32,000 bases of DNA from Patescibacteria group bacterium (GTDB lineage Bacteria > Patescibacteriota > Patescibacteriia > 2-01-FULL-39-33). The stretch is from positions 1 to 32,000 of the forward strand of contig JBAZMW010000003.1 in NCBI GenBank assembly GCA_041649575.1, read 5' to 3'. A program made the translations under genes and the position numbers. Under the pieces are notes generated by a model. It was not told the DNA's origin, ran no database searches, and was given only the letters and a program-made list of their open reading frames with translations. This document shows, in pieces, positions 1 to 18,433 of this stretch; the first letter of the stretch is position 1; each line of letters starts with the position of its first letter.

Positions 1-125
1 TTCCCGCTGTTCGTCTCGTCGCTTCGCGACGTCGCCGAACAGCGGCTATCTGACGCTGGCGCTTCATTTCGCCAGTCCAAAAGCTGCGCTTTTGTCCTGA
101 CGAAACGACAGATAGCCGCGGCGCA
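1..125 (+). repeat. Conserved 166-bp ORF-less mini-cassette, copy A (first 41 nt cut off by window edge)
   Basis: Identical to positions 809-933, 1480-1604 and 2101-2225. Ends ...CCGCGGCGCA|TTAGGTG. Confidence 0.9.
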
Positions 126-175
126 TTAGGTGAAATCGTGCTAATTTTTAACAAATCAAATAAACCATAAAAACT

Positions 176-586
176 ATGAGAAAAACAACCCTGATTGCCA
201 TCATTGTAATCGCTACAGTTACCATTGGAGGAATTTATGCATGGCAAAGATTGAATATGCCATCAGAACAAAGCAAGTGTACTAAGCAAGGGGGAAATTG
301 GATAACGGGTTCGCCTGAGTATGGCTCAAAATGCATAATCCCATATTCAGATGCGGGGGAAAAATGTACAAGTTCAGAGCAATGTTTAGGTCAATGCGTA
401 ACTAATGTAATAAGCCAACTCGGGAAGGAGGGTACATGTCAAAAAAATAATGACAATCGGGGTTGTTTCAATGCAATAGAAAGCGAGAGGTTTAATTGTT
501 TACTGGATGATATAATGGTTAATTGTGATAGTAAACATTGGGAAACCATGTGCGACTCACTTAAAGGAAAAGAATTCTTTGAATAA
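176..586 (+). CDS. Small secreted/membrane-anchored Cys-rich protein (136 aa), cassette 1 cargo
   Basis: N-terminal hydrophobic helix (LIAIIVIATVTIGGIYAW) followed by a 12-Cys domain. It is the only long ORF in the cassette. Confidence 0.7.
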   Translation: MRKTTLIAIIVIATVTIGGIYAWQRLNMPSEQSKCTKQGGNWITGSPEYGSKCIIPYSDAGEKCTSSEQCLGQCVTNVISQLGKEGTCQKNNDNRGCFNAIESERFNCLLDDIMVNCDSKHWETMCDSLKGKEFFE

Positions 587-602
587 AAATTAGCACGACT
601 AT

Positions 603-773
603 CACCTAACATGTTTTATACGGTTGCGCCCCTCGGCTCGCTCTCTGAAATTTAACGGGACACCGCTTCGCTCGGGGCTCCACCTAACTTTTGTCCTCGC
701 TTATGCGGTGACCTCCGGTCAATTGTACCGCAACGCTCGGAACAAAAGTTCGTATAAAACGATAACGTTCAGC
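603..773 (+). other. attC-like recombination site of cassette 1 (variable class, AAC...GTT)
   Basis: Inverse core CACCTAAC (603-610) followed by ATGTTTTATACGG. The right side is CGTATAAAACGATAAC-GTTCAGC, with the G at 767. TTTTATACG and CGTATAAAA are complementary. Confidence 0.55.
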
Positions 774-933
774 GACATCGCTTCGCTCTGTCGCTGAATG
801 CGCCGCGGTTCCCGCTGTTCGTCTCGTCGCTTCGCGACGTCGCCGAACAGCGGCTATCTGACGCTGGCGCTTCATTTCGCCAGTCCAAAAGCTGCGCTTT
901 TGTCCTGACGAAACGACAGATAGCCGCGGCGCA
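768..933 (+). repeat. Conserved 166-bp ORF-less mini-cassette, copy B
   Basis: Starts TTCAGCGACA directly after the G of attC-like site 1 and ends GCGCA before TTAGTAGC. It contains its own inverse core TGTCGCTGAAT (789-799), complementary to its first 10 nt. Confidence 0.9.
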
Positions 934-994
934 TTAGTAGCCATATTGCTTTTTACAAAATATTTTTAGGGGTTGAAAAAAAAGGAGAATAACC

Positions 995-1204
995 ATGAAA
1001 CGTATTGATGTACTTTGCGAATTGCCATTTGCTGGATTTTTAATCTTTGTTGGGTTGACTATCCTTGCAGGCAGCGGCATATACGCGATGACAGCCATGT
1101 CTTTTGCTGGCCGCTGTATCGGCTATGCCGGATGTATTTGCGGATTTGTATTGGTGTTCTTACCATTCTTGGTCTTAAGCTGGAAGTTACACCGTAACCC
1201 ATAA
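995..1204 (+). CDS. Small two-TM membrane protein (69 aa), cassette 2 cargo
   Basis: GGAG 7 nt upstream of the ATG and two hydrophobic segments. Preferred over the overlapping frame 1015..1197. Confidence 0.6.
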   Translation: MKRIDVLCELPFAGFLIFVGLTILAGSGIYAMTAMSFAGRCIGYAGCICGFVLVFLPFLVLSWKLHRNP

Positions 1205-1302
1205 ATGGCAAAACGATTCAAGGGAAGGAATGATTTGCTGTTCCTTCCCCACCCCCTAAAAATATTTTGAATGGAAAAATGATATAATATAAAAGCAATA
1301 CA

Positions 1303-1444
1303 GCTACTAACACGTTTTATAAGGCTCGCCCATTACTAAGATAATCAGCTCGCGGACATTGCTCGTTCGCTTACGTGTTTGGCTCCGCGCATATTTTACC
1401 ACCACGCGAACTTCGCAACGTCTTATAAAACGATAACGTTCAGC
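1303..1444 (+). other. attC-like recombination site of cassette 2 (variable class)
   Basis: GCTACTAAC (1303-1311) followed by ACGTTTTATAAG. The right side is CTTATAAAACGATAAC-GTTCAGC, with the G at 1438. It shares the internal motif GCTCCGCGCAYATTTTACCACCACG with site 3. Confidence 0.55.
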
Positions 1445-1604
1445 GACATCGCTTCGCTCTGTCGCTGAATGCGCCGCGGTTCCCGCTGTTCGTCTCGTCG
1501 CTTCGCGACGTCGCCGAACAGCGGCTATCTGACGCTGGCGCTTCATTTCGCCAGTCCAAAAGCTGCGCTTTTGTCCTGACGAAACGACAGATAGCCGCGG
1601 CGCA
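1439..1604 (+). repeat. Conserved 166-bp ORF-less mini-cassette, copy C
   Basis: Identical to copy B by direct comparison. Confidence 0.9.
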
Positions 1605-1650
1605 TTAAGTGAAATTTGCTATTTTATTAAAATCTAAATAATAAACCGCT

Positions 1651-1893
1651 ATGAAAAAAACAATCATAGTAATAGTGGCAGTAATTCTCATAATTATTAT
1701 AACCTTTTTGGGCTACTGGTTTTTTCTGAGGAAAAACTGCAATCAATTTTCAGGTAATTTTTCCTGGGCATGGGGTCCAAACCTTGTTTCTAAATGCGAA
1801 AATGCCGGCTGTAAAACCAATATTAAAAACTGCTCAGGAAGTCAAGATGCGCCAGATAGTGTTATGTGCTATTTAGAATGCACCTCCAAATAA
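1651..1893 (+). CDS. Small secreted/membrane-anchored Cys-rich protein (80 aa), cassette 3 cargo
   Basis: N-terminal TM (IIVIVAVILIIIITFLGYWFF) and 6 Cys. Shares a C-x2-3-Q-x-x-G-N-[WF]...S-K-C block with the cassette 1 protein. Confidence 0.65.
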   Translation: MKKTIIVIVAVILIIIITFLGYWFFLRKNCNQFSGNFSWAWGPNLVSKCENAGCKTNIKNCSGSQDAPDSVMCYLECTSK

Positions 1894-1903
1894 AATAGCA
1901 AAC

Positions 1904-2065
1904 TTCATTTAACACGGTTTATGTGGTTCATCCGACACTTCCCATATTAAGCCGAGACATCGGTCGGATTCACCTAAATCGCTTGTCGTCTTAGGTGGTG
2001 GCGCTCCGCGCACATTTTACCACCACGACGACTGCGCGACTTCACATAAACCGGTAACGTTCAGC
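1904..2065 (+). other. attC-like recombination site of cassette 3 (variable class)
   Basis: TTCATTTAAC (1904-1913) followed by ACGGTTTATGTG. The right side is CACATAAACCGGTAAC-GTTCAGC, with the G at 2059. There is a 10-bp L-box pairing plus internal hairpins. Confidence 0.55.
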
Positions 2066-2225
2066 GACATCGCTCCGCTCTGTCGCTGAATGCGCCGCGG
2101 TTCCCGCTGTTCGTCTCGTCGCTTCGCGACGTCGCCGAACAGCGGCTATCTGACGCTGGCGCTTCATTTCGCCAGTCCAAAAGCTGCGCTTTTGTCCTGA
2201 CGAAACGACAGATAGCCGCGGCGCA
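2060..2225 (+). repeat. Conserved 166-bp ORF-less mini-cassette, copy D
   Basis: Identical to copy B except one T>C at 2075, inside the 11-nt loop of the first hairpin. Confidence 0.9.
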
Positions 2226-2282
2226 TTATCATAAAATAGTAAAAAACATTTTCTTTTAGACAATAATTTTGGTAATTTTACT

Positions 2283-2317
2283 AAAAAACCCCAGGCCAAG
2301 TGCGATACTTGGCCTGG
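2283..2317 (-). terminator. Rho-independent terminator of the cassette 4 reverse unit
   Basis: CCAGGCCAAG / CTTGGCCTGG 10-bp stem with a 7-nt loop, followed on the minus strand by GGTTTTTT. Confidence 0.75.
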
Positions 2318-2353
2318 TTGAAACAGGCAGATACTCGTTGCGGGCGGTGTTCA

Positions 2354-2647
2354 CTATAGGGGGACGGGAACGAGACGCGGGTCCCGCATCTTTTCCCCAA
2401 TCGCCAGACAGAGCCGCGTTAGTGCTTCCGAGAGTTGGACGCCAGGGCGTTGAGTCAGTGATCCGGTGATTGCTTTTACTCCGCCGACGGTTATTCCCGA
2501 CATGAGCGGAGTTACCCTCCTCGCCCACTTCTTACGGAAAGCGAGAAAGAATGCTCCCTGGTTTTCCGGCGCTGGCATTTGCTGATATATCTCGACCCAG
2601 TCACCGCAGAAGCCCAGTTGAAAAACACGCCTGAATCTACGTTGCAT
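2354..2647 (-). CDS. Hypothetical 97-aa protein, reverse-oriented GC-rich cargo of cassette 4 (could instead be a structured RNA)
   Basis: AGGAGGTGG lies 7 nt before the second in-frame ATG (2647). A strong terminator lies 37 nt after the stop. I recognise no family. Confidence 0.4.
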   Translation of the reverse strand: MQRRFRRVFQLGFCGDWVEIYQQMPAPENQGAFFLAFRKKWARRVTPLMSGITVGGVKAITGSLTQRPGVQLSEALTRLCLAIGEKMRDPRLVPVPL

Positions 2648-2798
2648 TATTAAACCACCTCCTCTCATAGCCAGTAAACCACCAAAAACAATTGAGAAAT
2701 CCTATCAACCATGATAAGATTCATATACGAAAGAACAAAAATTATCCTATATTTAATTCATTTAAAAGTCAAGGGCGGATTTCTCGTTTTTACTACAT

Positions 2799-2936
2799 CC
2801 GACAACACGGTTTAGACATAATCGCTTGGTCGCTTGCGCGATTGACTCCCGCCCCCACTAACGCTTCGGCTGGCAGGCCGTCAAATTATATCGCGCCGCT
2901 TCCGGCGCGACTTCACCTAAAACGGTGACGTTGGGC
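2799..2936 (+). other. attC-like recombination site of cassette 4 (variable class, not followed by the mini-cassette)
   Basis: CCGACAAC (2799-2806) followed by ACGGTTTAGAC. The right side is CACCTAAAACGGTGAC-GTTGGGC, with the G at 2930. GTTGGGC fits GTTRRRY. Sequence after GTT diverges from the other sites, which defines the junction. Confidence 0.55.
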
Positions 2937-2979
2937 AAAACTGAAAAAACTTTTAAATTTATTTTGTTTTGATTTCTGT

Positions 2980-3492
2980 ATGATAAAGATAAGAAAACAT
3001 TTAGAAAAAGATATTCCCTACCGCGTCAAGTGGTTAAGTAATCCCAGTGCCAACAAATTCATTGGTGATGAAATAGGGCAAAAAACAAATCTGCAAAAAG
3101 AAAAGAGGTGGTTTGCTAATTATAAAAAAGCTAAGAACAAAAAGTTTTTTACTATTTGTGATAATTTTAAGCCAATCGGGTTTATGGGGTTATCAAACAT
3201 TAATAAGGCGAATAAAAATGCAGATTTGTTTATTGCTATCGGTGAAGACGACTATCGCGGCAAGGGAATCGGAAAAATCGCCATGGGATGGATAATTGAT
3301 TATGGATTTAAAAAATTAAAACTTCATAAGATCAACTTGGGTGTTATTAAAAATAATGTTCCGGCAGTAAATTTATATAAATCTTTTGGATTTGTCATTG
3401 AAGGTGAAATGAAAGATGAAGTTCTTTACAGAGGGAGATTTTATAATTTTTTATCCATGGCGATTTTTAATAGAAATCAAAACAAAAAATAA
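2980..3492 (+). CDS. GNAT-family N-acetyltransferase, cassette 5 cargo
   Basis: YRGKGIGK acetyl-CoA binding motif (R-x-x-G-x-G), an NxxAxxLYxxxGF-like segment, and typical 170-aa size. Confidence 0.8.
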   Translation: MIKIRKHLEKDIPYRVKWLSNPSANKFIGDEIGQKTNLQKEKRWFANYKKAKNKKFFTICDNFKPIGFMGLSNINKANKNADLFIAIGEDDYRGKGIGKIAMGWIIDYGFKKLKLHKINLGVIKNNVPAVNLYKSFGFVIEGEMKDEVLYRGRFYNFLSMAIFNRNQNKK

Positions 3493-3802
3493 GGAATCAG
3501 ACGCGATAATAAATAATAAAATCTATAAAAAAACAACAACTGCCTTAATAGTTATTCTCATCCTGGTTTTGATATATTTAGCAATACCGAAGCCATATTC
3601 ACTATCTACCAACATAAAATCTTGCGTTGATTCAAAGATTATTTCTGCGGCATATCTCAACCAAGATTCAGGCTGGTGTGCTGGGATAGTTTACCCGTCT
3701 AACAGAGACGAAATATGGCGTAATCCAATATGTACAATGTCTATAAAAGGCTGGGATTGCTTTGGTTATAAATTCTTTAAAAAAACTTCAATGGCTTTAT
3801 AA
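3416..3802 (+). CDS. Small membrane-anchored Cys-containing protein (start uncertain; overlaps GNAT 3' end by 77 nt)
   Basis: TM helix ALIVILILVLIYLAI and 5 Cys. The only ATG in frame is 3416, preceded by AAGGTGA at 3401-3407. No canonical start codon exists after the GNAT stop. Confidence 0.5.
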   Translation: MKFFTEGDFIIFYPWRFLIEIKTKNKESDAIINNKIYKKTTTALIVILILVLIYLAIPKPYSLSTNIKSCVDSKIISAAYLNQDSGWCAGIVYPSNRDEIWRNPICTMSIKGWDCFGYKFFKKTSMAL

Positions 3803-3820
3803 TCTATTATTTATTACAGC

Positions 3821-3840
3821 GCCTAACACGTTTCATTAAC
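3821..3840 (+). other. Half attC-like site (inverse core plus left box only) marking the distal end of the array
   Basis: GCCTAAC-ACGTTTCATT matches the left consensus and is complementary, with 1 mismatch, to the cassette-5 start TTGGGC. I found no convincing right arm or GTT partner downstream. Confidence 0.4.
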
Positions 3841-3850
3841 TCAAATACTT

Positions 3851-4453: not shown

Positions 4454-4987
4454 ATGAGGCCTCTTTTTACAATTAAAAAAACCAAAGGGAATGGCCGCGG
4501 GGTCTTTGCGCTCACCGATATCAAAAAAGGCAGACACGTCATTAGATGCGATCTGACAAAGCTAAAAACATACTCATTAGAAAAACTGAAGAAGCACCCA
4601 CAGCGCAGGTCCGACCATTGGGACGAGGCAGGGAGAGGCAAGTGGGTTTTGGATTTTTCTCCGGCCTCTTACGTTAACCATTCTTGCGATCCCAATTGCC
4701 TGACAAAATATTATACCTTAAAGAAAAAAGATATTGTGGCCAGGCGAGACATAAAAAGCGGCGAAGAGATGACTGTAGATTATTCGACGGGAGCCATCTA
4801 CGGATTCAACAAAAAATCTCACATCACCGCTGGCGCTGGAATTATGAAGTGCCGCTGCAACAGCAAAAAATGCAGAAAAATTATTACGGATGACTTTTTT
4901 GAGCTGCCTAAAGGTTTGCAAAGAGAATATTTTAAGAACTTACCGCCTTCGATTAAAAGAAAATTTGTAAAGAGACCAAAAAGATAA
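4454..4987 (+). CDS. SET-domain protein (putative protein-lysine methyltransferase)
   Basis: NHSCDPNC motif, EEMTVDY motif, and a post-SET-like CRCNSKKC Cys cluster. Confidence 0.8.
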   Translation: MRPLFTIKKTKGNGRGVFALTDIKKGRHVIRCDLTKLKTYSLEKLKKHPQRRSDHWDEAGRGKWVLDFSPASYVNHSCDPNCLTKYYTLKKKDIVARRDIKSGEEMTVDYSTGAIYGFNKKSHITAGAGIMKCRCNSKKCRKIITDDFFELPKGLQREYFKNLPPSIKRKFVKRPKR

Positions 4988-5436: not shown

Positions 5437-5982
5437 ATGGCCAAACAAACTTTAAATTTAGGCAGGCGCTGGTATGTCCTGCACACTTATTCTGGCCTAG
5501 AGGAGGCCGTGGAGCACAACTTGAAGCAACGTATCGAATCCATGGATATGGAAGATAAAATTTTTGGCATACTGATTCCCAAAGAGAAAAAAATCAGAAT
5601 CAAAAACGGCAAAAGAAAAGTGGTTGAAGAAAAAATCTACCCCGGCTACGTGCTGGTGGAGATGATTGTCACCGACGACAGCTGGTATGTGGTGAGAAAT
5701 ACGCCTCATGTCACCGGTTTTGTGGGCTCTGGCACCACGCCGACCCCGGTTTCCGAGGAAGAAATCAAGAGTCTGCAAAAACGGATGGGAGTGGACGAAC
5801 CAGAATACCAGATTGATGTGGTCAAGGGAGACAGCGTCAGAATTACCGACGGACCGTTTAAAACCATGGAAGGCAAGGTGGTGGAAATCGACGAAAGCCG
5901 CGGCAAGATCAAGGTGCTAATCTCCATGTTCGGCCGCGAAACTCCGGTGGAATTGGATTTCTTGCAAATAAAAAAGATATAA
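5437..5982 (+). CDS. nusG: Transcription termination/antitermination factor NusG
   Basis: WYVLHTYSG, PGYVLVEM and a KOW region (GDSVRITDGPF...GKV). Confidence 0.95.
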   Translation: MAKQTLNLGRRWYVLHTYSGLEEAVEHNLKQRIESMDMEDKIFGILIPKEKKIRIKNGKRKVVEEKIYPGYVLVEMIVTDDSWYVVRNTPHVTGFVGSGTTPTPVSEEEIKSLQKRMGVDEPEYQIDVVKGDSVRITDGPFKTMEGKVVEIDESRGKIKVLISMFGRETPVELDFLQIKKI

Positions 5983-9272: not shown

Positions 9273-10265
9273 ATGCCTTTAACCCTTTTGCCGGATCAGC
9301 AGAAATTAATAGCCAGAGAAAGAAAAAAATATCTTTGGTTTTTTTTGACCCCGCTGGCTCTGCTGATTCTGGATTTTATTTTATACAGTCTCCTTGCCTT
9401 GCTGTTTTCCAAAATCAACCCGGGCCAGGTGGCGGTGGTAATTAACGCCATTTTGGGTTTAGTTGGCGTTCTAGCCGTTGTTTTAATTATTGTATTCGCT
9501 ATCACGGGAATAATCGGTTATCTGACTTTCAAATATAGAATATTTAGAATATTGGAAAAAACTGAATATCAAAATCTGCCGCTAGAACAGATCGTCTTTA
9601 TCCTCCGCCCCAGTCTAGCGGCATTACTGGTTAGCCCGGTTTTTACTCTGGGCAATAAACTCTGTCTTTGGTCGATAATTCCGGTGATTTCTTGGCTGAT
9701 CGGCATTGTTTCCGTTTTTTATTCCAACCAGGTGATTTCCGTCATCATGCTGATCTTAGGATTAATCACTCTGGTCATCTCTCTTATCTTAACTGCCAGA
9801 GGCCGCGAATGGGCCTGGCGGAGGGAGCCTGCTCAAAACTTTAATCTTTTCAAAAAAAGACAGCGTCTTGTTAATATCGTGGCTCTTATCGTTCTGGTAC
9901 TGATGATAGTTACCGAACTGGTAGTGTTTATAGCAAATTTCAATCGCCAAACACTGGAACTCCAAAAAAACATGGCCAACGTCAGTGATGTCAATAATGT
10001 CGGCCAGGAAGAAAATATCGACGCTTTCCTAAAAATTTTCGAACTTAGGGGCATAAAAGTGACAGACCGAGAGCTCTTTAAGCAAGCGATGAACCAGGGT
10101 CTTAGCGACGGCGGCATACTAAAAGATATCGATCTGGAAAAACTGAAGAATCCCGATTTTCTTTTGGGTTATGGGGTGGGCTATGCCGCAGGCTGCCTGA
10201 AAGCCAAAGGTGATGAAAATTTTTGCCAAGATTTCATTAAAGAAAAAACCAAAGACTTGAAATAA
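9273..10265 (+). CDS. Polytopic membrane protein with soluble C-terminal domain (330 aa)
   Basis: Multiple hydrophobic helices. No family recognised. Confidence 0.7.
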   Translation: MPLTLLPDQQKLIARERKKYLWFFLTPLALLILDFILYSLLALLFSKINPGQVAVVINAILGLVGVLAVVLIIVFAITGIIGYLTFKYRIFRILEKTEYQNLPLEQIVFILRPSLAALLVSPVFTLGNKLCLWSIIPVISWLIGIVSVFYSNQVISVIMLILGLITLVISLILTARGREWAWRREPAQNFNLFKKRQRLVNIVALIVLVLMIVTELVVFIANFNRQTLELQKNMANVSDVNNVGQEENIDAFLKIFELRGIKVTDRELFKQAMNQGLSDGGILKDIDLEKLKNPDFLLGYGVGYAAGCLKAKGDENFCQDFIKEKTKDLK

Positions 10266-11970: not shown

Positions 11971-12028
11971 AGCTGCTTAAGACTAACCTTAATTCCTCCG
12001 CTAAGGGATTTTTTATTTTGGCAAAAAT

Positions 12029-12057
12029 TTGACTTTGAGCGGAGCTACTGCTAAATT
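12029..12057 (+). promoter_or_regulatory. Candidate sigma-70-type promoter for the islet
   Basis: TTGACT, 17 nt, TAAATT. Confidence 0.35.
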
Positions 12058-12096
12058 TGAGGTGCGATCTCGAACCTTAACATGGAGGAATTTAAG

Positions 12097-12783
12097 ATGA
12101 AAAAAGACGGTGGCAAGTTGCTAGTCTTGGAGGGCGGCGACGGCAGCGGCAAAGCCACCCAGACCAGGATGCTGGTTGAACGACTGCGGCGGCAAGGGCG
12201 GGATGTTTTCACGCTTGATTTTCCACGCTACGACGAGACTTTCGGCGGGAAAATAGCTCGGGCTTACCTCGATGGCCAATTCGGTGACCCCAAGAACATT
12301 GATCCCTACTTGGCGTCTATTCCCTACGCCATGGACCGCTATGAGAGCCTGCCCGCCTTACACGCCCAGCTTAACAAAGGTGGCTTGGTGGTAGTTGACC
12401 GCTTCCACACAGCCAACTTCATCCATCAGGGAGCCAAGATGGGCATCTCTGAAGACGGCCAGCTCAATGAGCCAGCCCTTCACGACCTGGTGTCCTTCTT
12501 GCAGCGACTGGAATTCGAGCTGCTCGGGATTCCCCAGCCGGATCTGGTGCTCTATCTGCACGTGGCACCACCAGTCGCGCAAACACTCATGGATAGTCAG
12601 GGCCGAGTCAAGGACGGACACGAGAAAGACGTGGCCTATGCCAAGAAGGTGGAACGAGTGGCCTTGTGGGCCTGTGAAGCCCTGGGCTGGAAACTGATTG
12701 AGTGCTGCCCGGACGAACAGACCATTCTGTCGCCGGAAGCAGTGAGTGACCTGATCTGGAACGAAGTAGAACGAGCAATATAG
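12097..12783 (+). CDS. Second thymidylate-kinase-family protein (GC-rich paralogue)
   Basis: LVLEGGDGSGKATQ P-loop and VVDRFHTANFIHQG (DRY-like). GGAGGA lies 7 nt before the ATG at 12097. An alternative start is 12082. Confidence 0.8.
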   Translation: MKKDGGKLLVLEGGDGSGKATQTRMLVERLRRQGRDVFTLDFPRYDETFGGKIARAYLDGQFGDPKNIDPYLASIPYAMDRYESLPALHAQLNKGGLVVVDRFHTANFIHQGAKMGISEDGQLNEPALHDLVSFLQRLEFELLGIPQPDLVLYLHVAPPVAQTLMDSQGRVKDGHEKDVAYAKKVERVALWACEALGWKLIECCPDEQTILSPEAVSDLIWNEVERAI

Positions 12784-12795
12784 GAGAAATGTCAG

Positions 12796-13788
12796 ATGAA
12801 TCAACACAAAGCGCTACCCACCCTGCATGTAGTCGGTGAAAGCATCCCGCAGGCCTATTTCCGAGCCATCAAGGCGGTTTGGGAACAAGGTCTGGCAATG
12901 AGAACCCAGTACGACCGCAAGAACGACGCTGGCGAATTCATTGACCCGCCCAGCCGCGACGCCCGTATGCTGATCGAAATCAAAGACCCGTTCGCTCAGC
13001 CGCGATTTCCGCCCATCTCCTTCTGTGAGATCGGTGTCTATATAGCCGAAATTCTGGGCGTCAAGAACCACCGCGTCCTGCCGATGTCCGTCCTGCTGGA
13101 TATGATCGACGGCCGGCCAGTACCGGAAGAACTGCGCAACCACTGGCCTTACACCTACCACCAGCGCCTGACAGCGCACCCGGAAAGCGACGGCCGAGTC
13201 GTCAATCAACTGAATATTGCTATCGGTGACGTGGCAAAAGTGCCGTACACGCGCCGTGCCATGTGCACTACGTCCGTACCCAACATCGATCCATTCTTGA
13301 AGGAAGACGTCCCTTGTCTACGCGAGCTGCAACTACGCTGCGTGGAGCAAGACGACGGCTTGCTCCTGCTCTGCCCGACCACCACCTGGCGCAGTCGCGA
13401 CCTGTACAAGGCCTGGGGCGATAATGTCATCGCCATTACCTTCTTGTTGCAGACAGTCGCCAAGGAAATCGCCCAGCGCAGTGGTCGCCGGGTGAAACTC
13501 GGTAGCTATGCCGACTTCAGCATGTCGCTACACATCTACGGCCAGGACTTTGGCGCGGTCGGCGGAGACCAGACACGCGGCATCCAAAGCTTCTTCGATA
13601 CCTTCGACGAAAAGGCGTTCATCGCCAGGTCGCTGACCAGCGAGATGGCCACGGAAATGCTGGTATTGCCACAACTGCAAGAGCTGCTGACTCCCGGGAA
13701 ACAGCAGGAGTGGGGTTTCCCGAAAAGCGCGGCCAAAGGCATCCAATCGCTCATCGACGAAATCAAGAGTGGCACATTGTTGGCCTAA
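12796..13788 (+). CDS. ThyA / dCMP-hydroxymethylase superfamily pyrimidine-C5 transferase (330 aa)
   Basis: By-eye alignment. TRRAM matches sRRii. VPCLRELQL matches PCHaffQF, keeping the catalytic Cys and the Cys-to-Gln spacing. WRSRDLYKAWGDN matches RSxDxxxGxPFN. SLHIYGQDF matches the phage HMase SLHVYSRHF. AGGAGA lies 8 nt upstream of the start. Confidence 0.7.
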   Translation: MNQHKALPTLHVVGESIPQAYFRAIKAVWEQGLAMRTQYDRKNDAGEFIDPPSRDARMLIEIKDPFAQPRFPPISFCEIGVYIAEILGVKNHRVLPMSVLLDMIDGRPVPEELRNHWPYTYHQRLTAHPESDGRVVNQLNIAIGDVAKVPYTRRAMCTTSVPNIDPFLKEDVPCLRELQLRCVEQDDGLLLLCPTTTWRSRDLYKAWGDNVIAITFLLQTVAKEIAQRSGRRVKLGSYADFSMSLHIYGQDFGAVGGDQTRGIQSFFDTFDEKAFIARSLTSEMATEMLVLPQLQELLTPGKQQEWGFPKSAAKGIQSLIDEIKSGTLLA

Positions 13789-13812
13789 CCTGATTCCGCC
13801 AAGAATCACATT

Positions 13813-13851
13813 CTCGCCTCTGAGGATACCAACCAAGGAGGCGAGTTTTTG
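13813..13851 (+). terminator. Rho-independent terminator after the thyA-like gene
   Basis: CTCGCCTC ... GAGGCGAG followed by TTTTT. Confidence 0.75.
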
Positions 13852-13855
13852 TTGT

Positions 13856-13885
13856 TTGACAAGGTTTGAGCTTTTTTGATAAAAT
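13856..13885 (+). promoter_or_regulatory. Candidate promoter of the dnaA gene
   Basis: TTGACA, 18 nt, TAAAAT. A DnaA-box-like TTATCAACA lies at 13931-13939, between the promoter and the start codon. Confidence 0.5.
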
Positions 13886-13966
13886 AATGTGTTGTACCTT
13901 GGTACGTTAACAGAGAGAGAAGTAAAGAGATTATCAACAACCGCGCTAAGCGGAAGGAGAATGGCC

Positions 13967-15364
13967 ATGTCGACTGACAAAAGCATTTGGCAGTCGATTA
14001 TGGATCGACTGCTAGAGTTACTCGACGACGAGAGCGCCTTCAAGAACTGGTTTGGTCAGACAGAATTCGTTTCACTTCAGAACGGCGTTCTGACCATTCG
14101 AGTGCCCAGCCAATTCTTTAAGGACTGGCTAACGGACCACTACCTCGATGAGATCAAGAAGGCCGCCGAGGCAGCCGGCCAGCACTGCACAGAAGTGGTA
14201 TTTGAGATAGATGGCAAGCTGGCAAAACAACCGGAGCAGCAGCCAGCCAACGAACAGACCCAAGAATCAGCGGCTCGGCCAAACCCAAAAAAGCAGGCCA
14301 AGCGGGAACCGGCCACCTTTGAGGATTTTGTGGAGGGCGCCGGTAACCGACTAGCGCTGGCCGCGGCCAGAGAGGTGGCTTTTGCCCAGACCTGTCCCTA
14401 TCCGATGGTCGCTTTATGCGGCGATCCGGGAGTCGGTAAGACCCACCTGCTAGAAGCCATCGCTCACGCCATCCGGCTGGAAAATCAGGCTAATACTGGT
14501 AACTGCCGCCAATTCCTGTTTACCAGCGCCGAGGCCTTCACTAATGAGTTTATGATTTCCTTGAGGGAGAAGAAATCAGATGCTTTCCGTGCCAGGTGGC
14601 GCAGGGTCGACGTGCTACTGGTGGATGAGGTGCAGTTCCTGGCGGGCAAGGAGGCGACTCAAGAAGAGTTCTTCCACACCCTTAATGCCATCGAACGTCA
14701 CAAAGGTATCGTGGCTATCACCTGCGACCAATCGCCGGACAAGGTAAGCGGCCTAGAGGAACGAATCCGGTCGCGCCTGATGCAGGGACTGGTCATTGAT
14801 ATCAACCCACCCAGTAGAGAAACACTACTAGCTATCGCCCGTGAATTGGCGAGTAAGTCCGGTTTCCGCTTTGATCCTGAAGCGCTGGAGTTGGTAGCCG
14901 ACTGTGTTTCTCCGGATGTCCGACGAGTGCAGGGAGCAATGCACAAACTGGCTCTGTGCGCACGTCTGGATGGCGGAGTCGTGACGCTGGAACTGGCCCG
15001 ACAGGCACTACGAGGGCTAGTCAACCTGAAAGGTAGTAAGCTGGTGACCATCGACTTGGTCATTGAGGCCGTAGCCAGGTATTCCGGTTTGACAGTCGGC
15101 GACCTCCGAAGCAGAAGGAGGGATCAAAGAGTGGCAACGCCGCGCCAATGGGCTATGTATCTCTGCCACCAGCTGATACCTTCAGCCACCCTAGCGAACA
15201 TCGGCCAGAAGTTCGGGCGGGACCACACCACTGTCCTGTACGCTTGCAGGGGCGTGGAGCGACGTTACCTGTCCGGCCGCAGTCTGCCGGGCACCAACCC
15301 AATAGAGGAGCTGCCGGGCACCAACCCAATAGAGGAGCTGCGGCAGATCATTCTCTCTGACTGA
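13967..15364 (+). CDS. dnaA: Chromosomal replication initiator protein DnaA (full length, GC-rich)
   Basis: Domain I (IWQSIMDRL...FKNWF...LTIRVPSQFFKDWL). AAA+ GDPGVGKTHLL and LLVDEVQFLAGKEATQEEFFHTLN. SRLMQGLVIDINPP. Domain IV PRQWAMYLCHQL...FGRDHTTVLYA. GGAG lies 7 nt before the ATG at 13967. Alternative starts are 13961 and 13889. Confidence 0.9.
   Translation: MSTDKSIWQSIMDRLLELLDDESAFKNWFGQTEFVSLQNGVLTIRVPSQFFKDWLTDHYLDEIKKAAEAAGQHCTEVVFEIDGKLAKQPEQQPANEQTQESAARPNPKKQAKREPATFEDFVEGAGNRLALAAAREVAFAQTCPYPMVALCGDPGVGKTHLLEAIAHAIRLENQANTGNCRQFLFTSAEAFTNEFMISLREKKSDAFRARWRRVDVLLVDEVQFLAGKEATQEEFFHTLNAIERHKGIVAITCDQSPDKVSGLEERIRSRLMQGLVIDINPPSRETLLAIARELASKSGFRFDPEALELVADCVSPDVRRVQGAMHKLALCARLDGGVVTLELARQALRGLVNLKGSKLVTIDLVIEAVARYSGLTVGDLRSRRRDQRVATPRQWAMYLCHQLIPSATLANIGQKFGRDHTTVLYACRGVERRYLSGRSLPGTNPIEELPGTNPIEELRQIILSD
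15284..15337 (+). repeat. Perfect in-frame 27-bp tandem duplication in the dnaA 3' end
   Basis: CTGCCGGGCACCAACCCAATAGAGGAG occurs twice, encoding LPGTNPIEE twice. Confidence 0.95.
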
Positions 15365-15428
15365 CTGGTTCTCGATAACGGCCGACTACCAAATCGACCA
15401 TTGTCGGGTCTGGTCATGACCCTTACGT

Positions 15429-15467
15429 CAACCCGAGCGTCTCACGCCGCTTGGGTTGATTTTTTTT
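15429..15467 (+). terminator. Rho-independent terminator after dnaA
   Basis: CAACCCGAGCG ... CGCTTGGGTTG (one G-U pair) followed by ATTTTTTTT. Confidence 0.8.
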
Positions 15468-15508
15468 GGCAAAAAGTATAAGATTAAAAAGAATTAAATT
15501 AATCTTTT

Positions 15509-17038
15509 ATGCCCAAATACGTACCAGTGATCGGCATGGAAATCCATGTCGAATTAAAAACCAAGAGTAAAATGTTTTGTTCCTGTTTGAACGGCTACGA
15601 ACTGCAAGAAAGGCCCAATCAAAACATTTGCCCGGTCTGCCTTGGCCATCCCGGCACCTTGCCGGTGATTAACCGTCAAGCGCTAACTTGGACAATTTTA
15701 GTCGGCCTAGCCCTAAATTGCCAAATTGCCAAAGTGACCAAATTCGACCGCAAAAACTACTTTTATCCCGACTTGCCCAAGGGCTATCAAATTTCTCAAT
15801 ACGACCGGCCACTGACTTTTGGCGGCCACCTGAAAATCGGCGATAAAAATATTTCCATAACCCGTATTCATTTAGAAGAAGATACCGGCAAGCTGATTCA
15901 TGTGGCTGGTGGCGCACTGGTAGATTTGAGCCGGGCCGGCACGCCACTGATGGAACTGGTGACCGATCCGGTGATTGAATCGGCCAAAGAAGCGCGTGAA
16001 TTCTGCCAAGCCTATCAGCAAATTCTGCGCTACCTGGAAGTTTCCGAGGCGGATATGGAAAAAGGCCAAATGCGCTGCGAAGCAAATGTTTCCCTGCAAG
16101 AAGCCAGCAAATTTGTAATTGAAAATAGCGAAGTCAAACCGCTTCTGGATTACAAATTAAATCCAAAAGTTGAATTAAAAAACATCAACTCTTTTAAGGC
16201 CGTCGAAAAAGCTATTGAGTATGAAATTGAACGCCAAACCAAAGCCCTGGAAACCGGCGAGAAGATTGTTCAAGAGACCCGCGGCTGGGACGAAGACAAA
16301 TTAATTACCTTCTCCCAAAGAAGCAAAGAAACGGCAGCCGATTATCGCTATTTTCCGGAACCGGACTTGCCGCCACTGGAAATAGCCGAGGAGCTAATTA
16401 GTAGCCTGAGGGCAACATTACCGGAATTGCCGCCGGCCAAACTGGAAAGATTTATACAGCAATACCAATTTGGGCTGGAAGACGCTAAAATCATCATCGG
16501 TGAAAAAAATTTGGCTGCTTACGCCGAAAAGGTTATTTCAGAATTAATCGGCTGGCTGGTGTCCCTGCCGGAAACCGAAGGCACGGAAGAGGAAATCTGG
16601 CGCCAAGAAGGTAAAAAATTAGTAAAAATTATCAGTAACTGGCTGATCAACCGACTTTTCAAACACTTAAATGAGCAAAAAATCAATATTAAAAATTGCC
16701 CCATAACCGCGGAAAATTTTGCTGAATTCATCACCTTAGTTTACCACGGCAAAATAAATAACTTGACCGCCCAGCAGATCCTGGAAGAAATGTTTAATAG
16801 CGGCGAATCCCCTGCTAGTATTTTGGAAAACAAAAATTTAGGGCAAATCAACAACCAAGGTGAGATCGCCGCGGTTATCGAGAAGATTATCGATCAACAC
16901 CAAACCGTGATTAGTGATTATAAAAAAGGCAAAGCCAACGCCCTGCAATTTTTGATCGGCCAGGCTATGAAAGAGACAAAGGGCAAAGCCAACCCGCAAA
17001 TGGTTAAGGAAATTTTGGAGAAAAAAATCAACCAATAA
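15509..17038 (+). CDS. gatB: Asp/Glu-tRNA amidotransferase subunit B
   Basis: GMEIHVELKTKSKMFCSC, NICPVCLGHPGTLP, YFYPDLPKGYQISQ, and a C-terminal YqeY-like tail. Confidence 0.95.
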   Translation: MPKYVPVIGMEIHVELKTKSKMFCSCLNGYELQERPNQNICPVCLGHPGTLPVINRQALTWTILVGLALNCQIAKVTKFDRKNYFYPDLPKGYQISQYDRPLTFGGHLKIGDKNISITRIHLEEDTGKLIHVAGGALVDLSRAGTPLMELVTDPVIESAKEAREFCQAYQQILRYLEVSEADMEKGQMRCEANVSLQEASKFVIENSEVKPLLDYKLNPKVELKNINSFKAVEKAIEYEIERQTKALETGEKIVQETRGWDEDKLITFSQRSKETAADYRYFPEPDLPPLEIAEELISSLRATLPELPPAKLERFIQQYQFGLEDAKIIIGEKNLAAYAEKVISELIGWLVSLPETEGTEEEIWRQEGKKLVKIISNWLINRLFKHLNEQKINIKNCPITAENFAEFITLVYHGKINNLTAQQILEEMFNSGESPASILENKNLGQINNQGEIAAVIEKIIDQHQTVISDYKKGKANALQFLIGQAMKETKGKANPQMVKEILEKKINQ

Positions 17039-17042
17039 TAAT

Positions 17043-17498
17043 ATGCCTTTTCTGGCACAGACCTCGATTCAAAAATTTGCTCCTAAAAAGGTCAAATTCA
17101 CTGAAGTTTACAAAAGCGTCACCAAAAGAAGCGACCTTTCGTCTCCCATGAGAAAAAAAATCTATGAGGTCTTGTCAAAAGCCGGATTCGACCAAAACCG
17201 AGCCAGTAGTATCGTTCATGACGATCAGCCGCTAACTGCTGTCGAGCTCAAAAACATTGCCAGCCTCTTAAACAGAGAAAAAATAAGCGGTTTTGAGGGC
17301 GATGTAAAAAAAGCGGTTCACGGCTATTTTCGCAAAGAAGCCGTCAAACAAAGAAATATCGCTTACGTTAGAAAAAAAAACATGCTCGAGTCTTTACAGG
17401 AAAACCTGGACGATTCCCCTAGCGGCCGACGTCTTAACGCCGGAACCAAAACCCCTAGCTCCAACTCCACCGGATCCAGACCCAAATTGCCTTTTTAG
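17043..17498 (+). CDS. Hypothetical protein (151 aa)
   Basis: ORF immediately after gatB. No motif recognised. Confidence 0.5.
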   Translation: MPFLAQTSIQKFAPKKVKFTEVYKSVTKRSDLSSPMRKKIYEVLSKAGFDQNRASSIVHDDQPLTAVELKNIASLLNREKISGFEGDVKKAVHGYFRKEAVKQRNIAYVRKKNMLESLQENLDDSPSGRRLNAGTKTPSSNSTGSRPKLPF

Positions 17499-17515
17499 AC
17501 AAAAACATCTTTTAT

Positions 17516-18433
17516 CTAGCGCTGACTTAAAAAATTACCTACCAATTTTTCAGCTTTTGAAAAATCGTTTAACCAAATAATTCGGGAATCGCGCCTAAAC
17601 CAAGTGAGCTGACGCTTGGCAAAATGACGAATCTCTCTGTTTAGTTGTTCTAACAATTCTTTGTAAGAAATTAAGCCGCGAAGATAACGAGAAATATAGC
17701 GGTATTCCAGGCCCCAACTCTCCATCTTTTTCCAGCTGATCCCGCGTTTTTTCAGAGCTCTGACTTCTCGGATCATACCCTGCCGTAAACGTTCTTTCAG
17801 ACGTCGGCTGACGCGATCATAAATCTCAGGCAAAGGAAAGGCTGTGCCTAAAATTAAAATATCGTATGGCGGCCGGAGTGGTTTCGGTTGCAGTGATTTA
17901 GGCCGGCCGGTTTCGTAGTAAATCTCCAAGGATCGTTGAACCCGACGACGATTTTTTTGATCAATAACCGAAAAAGTCTTGGGGTCGACTTTTTTAAGCT
18001 GCGTCAAAAGCCGATTTAGAGATAATTTATCCAATTTTTTTCTTATCTGTTTTTGTTTTTGGGGGTCGCTAGTGGGTAATTGGTAGCCCTTAATGACCGC
18101 GTCCAAATACAAACCAGTGCCGCCCACCAGAAAAGGCACTTTCTCCCGCTGCCAAATATTATTAAGAGCCTGATAAGCTAATTTTTGGTAGCGAGCCACG
18201 TTAAAATCGCCATGGGGTCCCACCACATCAATCAGATGATAGGGAATTTTTGTCCGACCGAGATGATAATCTTTTAAATCCTTGCCCGTGCCGATATTGA
18301 GGCCGCGATAAACTTGGCGGCTGTCGGCCGAAACAATTTCCCCTTTAAACCTTTTGGCCAAACTTACAGCCAGCTTGGTTTTGCCGGTGGCTGTCGGCCC
18401 AAGAATAACTATTAATTTTTTTTTGTCTGACAT
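17516..18433 (-). CDS. miaA: tRNA dimethylallyltransferase
   Basis: ILGPTATGKT P-loop and SADSRQVYRGLNIGTGK. Start placed at MSDKKK (18433) rather than the ORF-track ATG at 18487. Confidence 0.9.
   Translation of the reverse strand: MSDKKKLIVILGPTATGKTKLAVSLAKRFKGEIVSADSRQVYRGLNIGTGKDLKDYHLGRTKIPYHLIDVVGPHGDFNVARYQKLAYQALNNIWQREKVPFLVGGTGLYLDAVIKGYQLPTSDPQKQKQIRKKLDKLSLNRLLTQLKKVDPKTFSVIDQKNRRRVQRSLEIYYETGRPKSLQPKPLRPPYDILILGTAFPLPEIYDRVSRRLKERLRQGMIREVRALKKRGISWKKMESWGLEYRYISRYLRGLISYKELLEQLNREIRHFAKRQLTWFRRDSRIIWLNDFSKAEKLVGNFLSQR

Follow-up and report, generated by a model that had tools for sequence, protein, structure and literature searches.

Integron integrases (IntIs) have the Xer proteins as their closest relatives, and no evolutionary intermediates between the two are known (PMC7790495). 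The IntI-specific additional domain, I2, is seen as the innovation that allowed the change from duplex to single-strand substrates (PMC7790495). Sedentary chromosomal integrons such as the Vibrio cholerae superintegron, with its attC sites of the V. cholerae repeat (VCR) type, consist of small, mostly same-strand open reading frames (ORFs), each followed by an AAC...GTT palindrome, and the locus described here has the same organization. It lies at one end of a 32-kb stretch of a Patescibacteria genome (contig JBAZMW010000003.1, positions 1–32,000), which we refer to as the window. Window 1–3836 is probably the distal end of a Patescibacteria chromosomal cassette array that works like a sedentary integron, presumably served by a recombinase from a clade without I2. 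The archaeal IntIs keep the additional domain (PMC9668308), whereas the recombinases linked to Patescibacteria arrays are without it. The preliminary description of this DNA had called the genome similar to those of the Candidate Phyla Radiation (CPR), and in NCBI the proteins identical to those of the window are indeed named Patescibacteria.

Recombination sites and cassette boundaries

The gene-cassette array occupies the + strand of window 1–3836, contains five ORF-bearing units and is followed by ordinary chromosomal genes. Its order is E-c1-E-c2-E-c3-E-c4-c5, in which c is an ORF-bearing cassette and E an ORF-less cassette. A conserved left half, AACAYGKTTTA, is present at 608, 1309, 1911, 2804 and 3825, and a conserved right half, TAAAMCGRTRACGTT, ends at 769, 1440, 2061 and 2932; neither full motif is found anywhere else in the 32 kb. 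The two halves delimit four full sites, all imperfect palindromes, with AAC-to-GTT lengths of 162, 132, 151 and 129 nt. Cassette 1 (126–767) starts with TTAGGTGAAAT, carries its R'' arm, CACCTAAC, at 603–610 and has its site at 608–769. Cassette 2 (934–1438) has R'' GCTACTAAC and a site at 1309–1440, and cassette 3 (1605–2059) has R'' TTCATTTAAC and a site at 1911–2061. The sites of these three cassettes match the covariance model R1, described below, with 109.7, 128.3 and 126.4 bits, respectively. Cassette 4 (2226–2930; R'' CATCCGACAAC; site 2804–2932) gives 69.5 bits and has no E after it. The last unit or units (2931–3836) end in R''-L'' only (GCGCCTAAC ACGTTTCAT, 3819–3836), and this is the end of the array. 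The fifth site (3821–3836) is thus a left half alone, followed by ordinary genes, and the full-site match at this position is not significant (8.6 bits).

The preliminary description had proposed conserved AAC-type left and GTT right halves in an attC-like R''/L''...L'/R' layout, and both the motif positions and an alignment of 16 sites bear this out. Four of its five palindrome-ended units end in full palindromes and the fifth in a left half only, and its site lengths of 132–171 bp become 129–162 nt when measured from AAC to GTT. The unit starts that it gave (126, 934, 1605 and 2226) are retained; however, they follow E and not the preceding site. All four copies of E had been overlooked.

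A mobile cassette and the family of related sites

The protein of cassette 1 has a copy of at least 90% identity in a metagenome-assembled genome (MAG) of Candidatus Buchananbacteria (locus L101). There it is part of a series of small ORFs, more than 20 in 13 kb and all on the same strand, which includes NUDIX, GIY-YIG, Fic, DHH, HicAB and methyltransferase genes. Window 103–769 and L101 2763–3427 share 89% DNA identity; the homology stops exactly at GTT, and the neighbours differ on both sides. The match also takes in 22 nt ahead of the cassette 1 start, which in each array belong to the L' arm of the preceding site, and these preceding sites are different. Therefore, the mobile unit is an ORF with its downstream site, bounded at the predicted crossover, which agrees with the earlier idea of circles closed at G|TT. 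Since L101 and L102 are the same sequence, they allow no comparison of cassette presence and absence.

A degenerate two-half site pattern was scanned against one genome per species and returned 16 loci, approximately the chance number, of which three are real relatives. These are L011 in a Patescibacteria MAG, L016 on a 922-kb contig of a Patescibacteria MAG, and L009 on CAZCCC010000020.1, which is binned as uncultured Gammaproteobacteria. Window site 2 is 88% identical to L009 3476–3608, and window site 3 is 83% identical to L016 3967–4119. L009 2484–4210 also combines the same site family with a Cys-rich secreted ORF like that of window cassette 1; judged from its sequence, this contig would represent either mis-binning or else spread beyond Patescibacteria. 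The same sites with different cargo, which the preliminary description had suggested looking for, were therefore found in related genomes (L009, L011, L016 and L101), and in 16–20 loci they lie beside a divergent tyrosine recombinase.

The alignment of 16 sites from five sources fits well at both ends, and the AAC/GTT pair is invariant. In the 12-pair L helix, 90% of the cells are paired, compared with 28–41% when the partner is slid by 1–3 columns. Five pairs show compensatory changes, and none of 500 shuffles reaches the observed covariation score, so that the covariation claimed earlier for the paired sequences holds in the L-box helix. The covariance model R1, built from this alignment, recovers all of the seeds, finds extra sites on the cassette strand only and has no match in the 13 chance loci. 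It was used in place of a simple AAC/GTT-plus-stem detector, which was too noisy (4–14 matches per shuffled window). The family has a median site length of 115 nt, the shortest site being 49 nt and the longest 187 nt. In viral contigs, the site pattern gives chance matches only and R1 gives none.

Two irregular arrangements are seen in the family. First, left halves alone (R''-6 nt-L'') stand at the ends of arrays or inside them (window 3821–3836; L016 4825 and 5355; L101 6692 and 7488), and each of them, as duplex DNA, is a complete 9-6-9 inverted-repeat core site. Second, ORFs are nested inside sites at L101 3871–4590 and 12149–12890 and at L020 ~990–140 (minus strand). These inserts (one ORF of no known type, one hicBA pair and one 156-aa ORF) lie between GGTTC, just after L'', and TCACCCAAAT, each with its own short inverted repeat on the flanks. 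Their position suggests a second place of insertion, within the variable part of the site.

Complementarity of cassette ends and folding of the sites

The start of each cassette was compared with its end by an anchored alignment of the first 40 nt with the reverse complement of the last 40 nt. For own start against own end, cassettes 1–3 score 22, 20 and 20, whereas cross pairs between window cassettes reach at most 12, and the 99.9th percentile of the null, taken from random TT-starting windows, is 12.5. The complementarity extends 20–40 nt inside these three cassettes, as the preliminary description had it. In 25 cassettes of the family, bounded by consecutive R1 matches, own start and end give a median of 13, compared with 4 for pairs between different cassettes and 3 when the flanks on either side of a single site are aligned. 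Around 29 ordinary genes of the window, the flanks score 8 in the median and 13 at most; the cassette ORFs score 20–21. This control had been named in advance as the way to recognize generic inverted repeats, and it does not indicate them.

The sites are strongly structured and lie downstream of ORFs, as would also be the case for generic terminators, repetitive extragenic palindromic (REP)-like repeats or transposon ends, with the start/end complementarity as a by-product. We consider this explanation hardly credible: a terminator scan of the window finds none at the cassette sites, the ordinary genes do not have the complementarity, the ends differ from unit to unit, unlike those of a transposon family, and the sites are strongly tied in position to one recombinase clade and its attI. 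The terminator or repeat reading was rejected, as it is contradicted by the link to a divergent recombinase, the cassette shared with L101 and the ordinary-gene control. Rfam has no relevant match in the window at either gathering or permissive thresholds.

To describe the closed form of the sites, each site was joined to the start of its own cassette and folded with DNA parameters. The circle-closed sites form long, almost continuous rods: the R extension is followed by the R box, a bulge of 4 nt on one side separates this from the L box, and a two-hairpin junction comes last. The bottom strands of cassettes 1–3 fold with −51, −52 and −51 kcal/mol and the top strands with −46, −44 and −48 kcal/mol, and the bottom strand is the more stable one in 48 of 50 sites (Wilcoxon p = 1e-8). 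In these folds, a one-sided bulge of 4–5 nt separates the R and L boxes, and the single extrahelical G/T bases of classical sites are not the pattern. Across loci, cassette starts share TTRNNNGAAAT and ends share CATCNNNYAAC (for example, window 126–136 and 599–610). Because the start motif meets the end motif, the closed stem has a conserved mismatch at a distance of 9–10 nt from the crossover. The bottom strand, with T.T and T.G, has a milder form of it than the top strand, with A.A and A.C. In L031 (minus strand), the cassettes at oriented 15380–16748 and 16866–17811 have swapped partners, with each start pairing with the end of the other; thus, the sequences on either side of the intervening site are complementary to each other.

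The folds bear on whether the hairpins are incidental and the array arose by ordinary double-strand Xer recombination between duplex sites, like the pdif modules of Acinetobacter plasmids. The left half (R''-6 nt-L'') of every site is a 9-6-9 core site when taken as duplex, and left halves alone do occur in arrays, as this explanation would have it. However, in the middle of the R and L arms four bases vary between cassettes and stay complementary within a cassette, as would be expected from selection for intrastrand pairing and not from recognition of a duplex sequence. In addition, the bottom strand is favoured in nearly all sites, and the G|TT boundaries belong to the L'-R' side, which has a duplex spacer of 10–11 nt. 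Double-strand exchange is accordingly a very improbable account of the array, and folded sites remain our preferred reading.

A recombinase without I2 and its attI in related arrays

Next to the L011 array, at a distance of ~130 nt from its first cassette boundary, a divergent gene encodes a tyrosine recombinase of 272 aa. The protein contains Phage_integrase and SAM_4 domains. On the NCBI XerA model NF040815, named 'site-specific tyrosine recombinase/integron integrase', it scores 239 bits and passes the cut-off of 220, whereas on the integron integrase model TIGR02249 it scores 223 bits, fails the cut-off of 265 and aligns in two pieces. The match to Vibrio IntIA (2a3v) is likewise split in two, and a stretch that is 66 residues long in IntIA counts only 24 in the L011 protein, so the I2 region is missing from it. 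Archaeal XerA (4a8e and 5hxy) is matched over the full length with similar scores. All of the array-linked recombinases have 270–280 aa and no I2 domain; six of them score 220–226 bits on TIGR02249, below its cut-off, and 210–247 bits on NF040815, with five of the six above the cut-off. The same scan also retrieved the canonical IntIs of L089 and L100 (328 and 356 aa), which have the ALxRKYP...W motif region and score 392 and 406 bits on TIGR02249. R1 has no match at these two loci.

To relate sites and recombinases, 80 independent metagenome loci were retrieved via an alignment of the closest homologues of the L011 recombinase and oriented with the recombinase on the + strand. At a threshold of at least 27 bits, R1 gives 34 matches: upstream, 31 on the opposite strand and two on the same strand (226 kb searched); downstream, none on the opposite strand and one on the same strand (214 kb searched). 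Among the loci with at least 600 nt of upstream sequence, a divergent array is present in 13 of 26 whose recombinase is 45–52% identical to that of L011, in three of ten at 40–45% and in none of 17 below 40%. Of 53 recombinases placed in a neighbour-joining tree, the 17 that are linked to arrays all belong to a single clade, which has 20 members. The upstream sequence of the other three members is too short to reach a site, yet the attI motif is present, so that every member of the clade has an array or attI. In L027, R1 matches at 5517–5611, 9495–9588 and 13515–13600 are on the same strand as a 406-aa recombinase that has a long N-terminal extension and belongs to a different clade; this layout may be an unrelated arrangement or a second use of the sites.

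The attI-like boundary reads TTCGYATAW, 6–7 nt ending in AG and then |TTRNNNGAAAT, and is located 60–150 nt upstream of the recombinase start. It consists of two inverted 9-bp arms (TTC....AA) around a 6–7-bp centre, as in an ordinary tyrosine-recombinase core site. The folded cassette site has the same arm-centre-arm geometry with 4–5 extra nucleotides on one strand. Divergent arrays and an attI next to the recombinase are found in 16–20 relative loci. A second attI left arm (TTCGYATAA-like) is present ~45 nt further upstream in L031, L032, L041, L043, L044, L045, L047, L048 and L052, and recalls the accessory integrase-binding repeats of class 1 attI.

Two alternatives are concerned with the nature of this enzyme. 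In the first, there is no dedicated integrase: the recombinase would be the housekeeping Xer of the cell and attI its chromosomal dif, where small elements similar to integrative mobile elements exploiting Xer (IMEX) would have piled up as cassettes. The XerA-type score on NF040815 and the 9-6/7-9 inverted-repeat duplex site right beside the gene are in its favour. The gene-adjacent position of attI resembles the layout of single-Xer systems such as XerS/difSL. Moreover, the CTX phage integrates as a folded single strand via Xer proteins without I2 (PMC7790495). However, many other Xer-like proteins of comparable identity fall outside the array-linked clade, and these come with no array and no attI. 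A terminus with dif would also predict convergence at the recombinase, and the maps of gene strand and skew in seven loci show no such sign. A housekeeping Xer is therefore improbable as the enzyme of the arrays, and a dedicated recombinase clade is preferred.

In the second alternative, the window belongs to a canonical integron, with a normal IntI containing the additional domain upstream of position 1, and the Xer-like recombinases at related arrays are bystanders. The AAC/GTT triplets, the G|TT crossover and the RYYYAAC/GTTRRRY-like cores in three of the five window cassettes all fit classical attC, and the window starts inside the array, with the upstream part outside the data. Against this, all 20 members of the array-linked clade are without the additional domain, and the canonical IntI loci have no match to the site model. 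In addition, the 191,558-bp contig of the window carries none of the 120 best homologues of the L011 recombinase, a comparison in which canonical IntIs were not searched for directly. We regard a canonical integron as more improbable still than a housekeeping Xer. The array works like a chromosomal integron and is not a canonical one, since the protein features that define integrons are lacking, as judged in the relatives. The integron-type array of the preliminary description therefore stands in its mobile cassettes and attC-like folded sites, and is revised in that the recombinases of the relatives have no IntI additional domain.

E, an ORF-less cassette at four consecutive junctions

Four consecutive junctions of the array are occupied, at the G|TT crossover point, by E, which counts 166 nt from TT to A, or 164 nt between its flanking TT dinucleotides; the fifth junction is without E. 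The four cassettes that E precedes are unrelated to one another. The repeat search and an alignment of the regions between ORFs show three identical copies and a fourth with one substitution. Copy 0 (1–125) has its 5' part cut by the window start, with AAC at 38–40 and CATT at 124–127, and matches R1 at 30–133 with 21.7 bits. Copy 1 (768–933; TT...GCGCA) contains an internal site from AAC at 846–848 to CATT at 932–935. Copy 2 (1439–1604) matches R1 at 1509–1612 with 21.7 bits, and copy 3 (2060–2225) carries its substitution in a hairpin loop. All four are on the + strand.

When R1 is run unfiltered, it gives a full-model, in-register match in each of the four copies (13–22 bits; E-values of 2e-4 to 0.02 for 4.2 kb). 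In register, the site reads CGTCGCCG-AAC-A-GCGGCTATCTG ... GAAACGA-CAGATAGCCGC-GGCGC-A|TT. The start of E, TTCAGCGACATC, is complementary to its own R'', GACGTCGCCGAA, at ten of 12 positions, and the other two would form G.T pairs on the bottom strand. The junctions read …ACG|TTCAGCG… and …GCGCA|TTAGGTG…, as would result from an exchange between the site of E and a resident one. E ends in CATT and not CGTT; CATT endings are also present in a few ordinary sites of relatives. Its GC content is 0.61, compared with 0.31–0.39 for cassettes 1–3 and 5, and its minus strand folds with −101.5 kcal/mol (z −10.2), compared with −87.9 kcal/mol. No sigma-70-type promoter and no match to an Rfam family were found in E.

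E is absent from the collections of species-representative genomes and viruses that were searched, and a pseudo-peptide search gave just one relative, a diverged E in L020, from another metagenome. It is 88–92% identical in the first half, follows ACGTT and ends in CATT. Compensatory changes (CAGCGACA/TGTCGCTG to CAGCAACA/TGTTGCTG; CTATCTG/CAGATAG to CATATCC/GGATATG) keep the helices.

Read from its sequence, E is a mini-cassette with its own site, having the crossover TT start, the own site and the match of start and own R'' of an ORF-less cassette. It would be a non-coding cassette that spreads across four neighbouring junctions by cassette recombination itself. It could instead be a non-autonomous insertion element that targets the crossover (like the insertion sequence family IS1111-attC, or a hairpin-ended IS200/IS605 derivative) or a small structured RNA gene. 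The four near-identical, GC-rich copies with TT on both sides, the very stable fold, more so on the minus strand, and the breaks at E in assemblies of the same population would suit such an element. However, it is unlikely in view of the full-length, in-register match to the site family, the start/own-R'' rule that E obeys and junctions that are exactly as predicted for site-by-site exchange. The CATT endings recur in ordinary sites of relatives, Rfam has no match, and no autonomous or longer relative is found in the genome and viral collections or among the called proteins. Taken as a mini-cassette, E illustrates on a small scale a non-coding element whose spread seems to rely on the recombination that also moves the other cassettes.

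Proposed mechanism and its weighing

In the proposed mechanism, each cassette would once have been a circle, with TT at its start, with or without a small ORF inside, and with a folded recombination site at its end. The site would run from R'' (...YAAC) through a 1-nt spacer, L'', the two-hairpin variable part, L' and a 5-nt spacer ending in AC to a final G, with the crossover predicted at G|TT (A|TT in E). Judging from the relatives, the enzyme would be a tyrosine recombinase of 270–280 aa from a distinct XerA/IntI-like clade without I2, encoded divergently at the array head behind a duplex attI (TTCGYATAW-N6/7 ending AG|TTRNNNGAA). By analogy with integrons and the CTX phage, the folded bottom strand would mimic a duplex core site, one strand would be exchanged with attI or another site, and replication would resolve the junction. 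We infer that the clade enzyme catalyses cassette exchange, and the mechanism as a whole is likewise drawn from computation.

Several points weigh against this reading. No recombinase is found in the 32-kb window by tblastn, and the array runs past position 1, where copy 0 of E is cut by the window edge; both had been noted in the preliminary description. The pairing of own start and own end, claimed there for all units, holds for cassettes 1–3 and does not extend to the end of the array. Cassette 4 scores only 7, in line with the loose match reported earlier, and cassette 5, for which pairing between TTGGGC (2931) and GCCTAAC (3821) had been proposed, scores 4, which is not significant by itself. 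The recombinase tree is a quick neighbour-joining distance tree and is crude. In L016, the attI-like boundary adjoins a penicillin-binding-protein gene and not a recombinase, and thus arrays can lack a recombinase. The simple model predicts neither arrays that end in half sites nor ORFs nested within sites. Finally, I2 is held to be necessary for cassette capture (PMC7790495). Because of this, and because archaeal IntIs keep the domain, an array-linked clade without I2 is unexpected.

Beyond the window, we tentatively put forward a gene-capture system that may be widespread in Patescibacteria, with a dedicated Xer-type recombinase that never had I2 or has lost it, a dif-like duplex attI and folded single-strand sites; we hold this broader proposal to be possible, at somewhat less than even chances. 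A literature search, which was not exhaustive, on integrons and attC in CPR/Patescibacteria and on integron-like, Xer and XerA-type systems found no account of it and no report of integrons in this phylum. If true, the system would be a present-day equivalent of the Xer-like stage from which integrons have been proposed to arise, and would show that hairpin cassette recombination can do without I2. If the recombinases are active, they would provide a testable system for this origin and would bring ultrasmall, symbiotic, genome-reduced bacteria into the range of gene-cassette exchange, and surveys that demand the IntI domain would miss such systems.

Cassette contents and neighbouring genes

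The cassette 1 ORF (176–586) encodes a Cys-rich protein of 136 aa with an N-terminal membrane anchor and no Pfam match. Cassette 2 encodes a 69-aa membrane protein (995–1204) and cassette 3 an anchored, Cys-rich protein of 80 aa (1651–1893). The cassette 4 ORF (2354–2668; 104 aa, no Pfam match) is on the reverse strand. Cassette 4 has a GC content of 0.45, compared with 0.31–0.39 in the other ORF cassettes, and has its own promoter-like site at 2772–2744 and a strong terminator-like hairpin at 2317–2291. It starts with TTATCAT, whereas its end would call for TTGTCGG. Given this poor fit of start and end, cassette 4 may be a fused or rearranged cassette.

The last unit carries a GNAT acetyltransferase gene (2980–3492; Pfam GNAT) and a small membrane ORF (3500–3802). 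The sequence at ~3490–3529 pairs with the array end at 3796–3827 with a score of 17, against a null maximum of 16, which suggests a lost site between the GNAT gene and the last ORF. The last ORF may thus be a separate cassette.

The genes 3' of the array end encode a 174-aa protein of no known family, a SET-domain protein, secE and nusG. The SET-domain protein (177 aa; 4454–4987) is two genes after the array end and has no flanking site. Further into the window, a GC-rich block at 12000–17500 (0.51–0.56, compared with ~0.42) contains a second thymidylate kinase gene, an ORF of no known function and dnaA (13889–15364), the 3' end of which has an exact 27-nt tandem duplication (15284–15337). At ~17.5 kb the genes switch from the + to the − strand and the cumulative GC skew peaks; despite dnaA, this pattern looks like a terminus rather than an origin.

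Comparison with known systems

The pdif modules of Acinetobacter plasmids are, like the cassettes described here, discrete gene modules in series bounded by Xer-type sites. The pdif sites, by contrast, are 28-bp duplexes in alternating orientation that are not known to have a hairpin or complementarity between the two ends of one module. E, for its part, resembles IS1111-attC elements, group IIC-attC introns and ORF-less integron cassettes in that cassette sites are repeatedly occupied within one array by non-coding DNA. It differs from IS1111-attC elements and group IIC-attC introns in having its own family-type site and cassette boundaries, in its length of 166 nt, which is far below that of any insertion sequence or intron, and in encoding no enzyme. 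Clusters of attC sites lacking integron integrases (CALIN) are defined by at least two attC sites with no integrase nearby; the window has four full sites and no recombinase in 32 kb, but its array continues past position 1.

The archaeal integrons (Ghaly et al. 2022, PMC9668308) likewise show integron architecture outside the classical hosts and were found by mining MAGs. The likeness to the V. cholerae superintegron covers the G|TT crossover, the cassette-specific R''/R' complementarity, the related sites within an array, the HicAB toxin–antitoxin and ORF-less cassettes as cargo, and an attI beside a divergent tyrosine recombinase. The differences from sedentary integrons are as follows. In the Patescibacteria relatives, the recombinases have 270–280 aa and no I2, and their TIGR02249 scores stay under the cut-off. 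The closed cassette has an R stem that runs on for 20–40 bp, a 1×5-nt internal loop and a conserved mismatch replace the usual spacer and extrahelical bases, and the variable part is a conserved two-hairpin junction. Furthermore, attI is a plain 9-6/7-9 duplex core site, and the host phylum is Patescibacteria.

Lastly, Xer/dif recombination and the elements that exploit it (CTX phage and other IMEX) share with these arrays a Xer-type recombinase without I2 and a single strand that imitates a duplex core site by folding. XerA (4a8e and 5hxy) is among the best full-length matches of the L011 recombinase, and single-strand exchange is a plausible further likeness. In contrast to the Xer/dif exploiters, the arrays described here are long and consist of promoterless gene cassettes with their own sites, follow the integron boundary rule and are linked to an array-specific recombinase clade.

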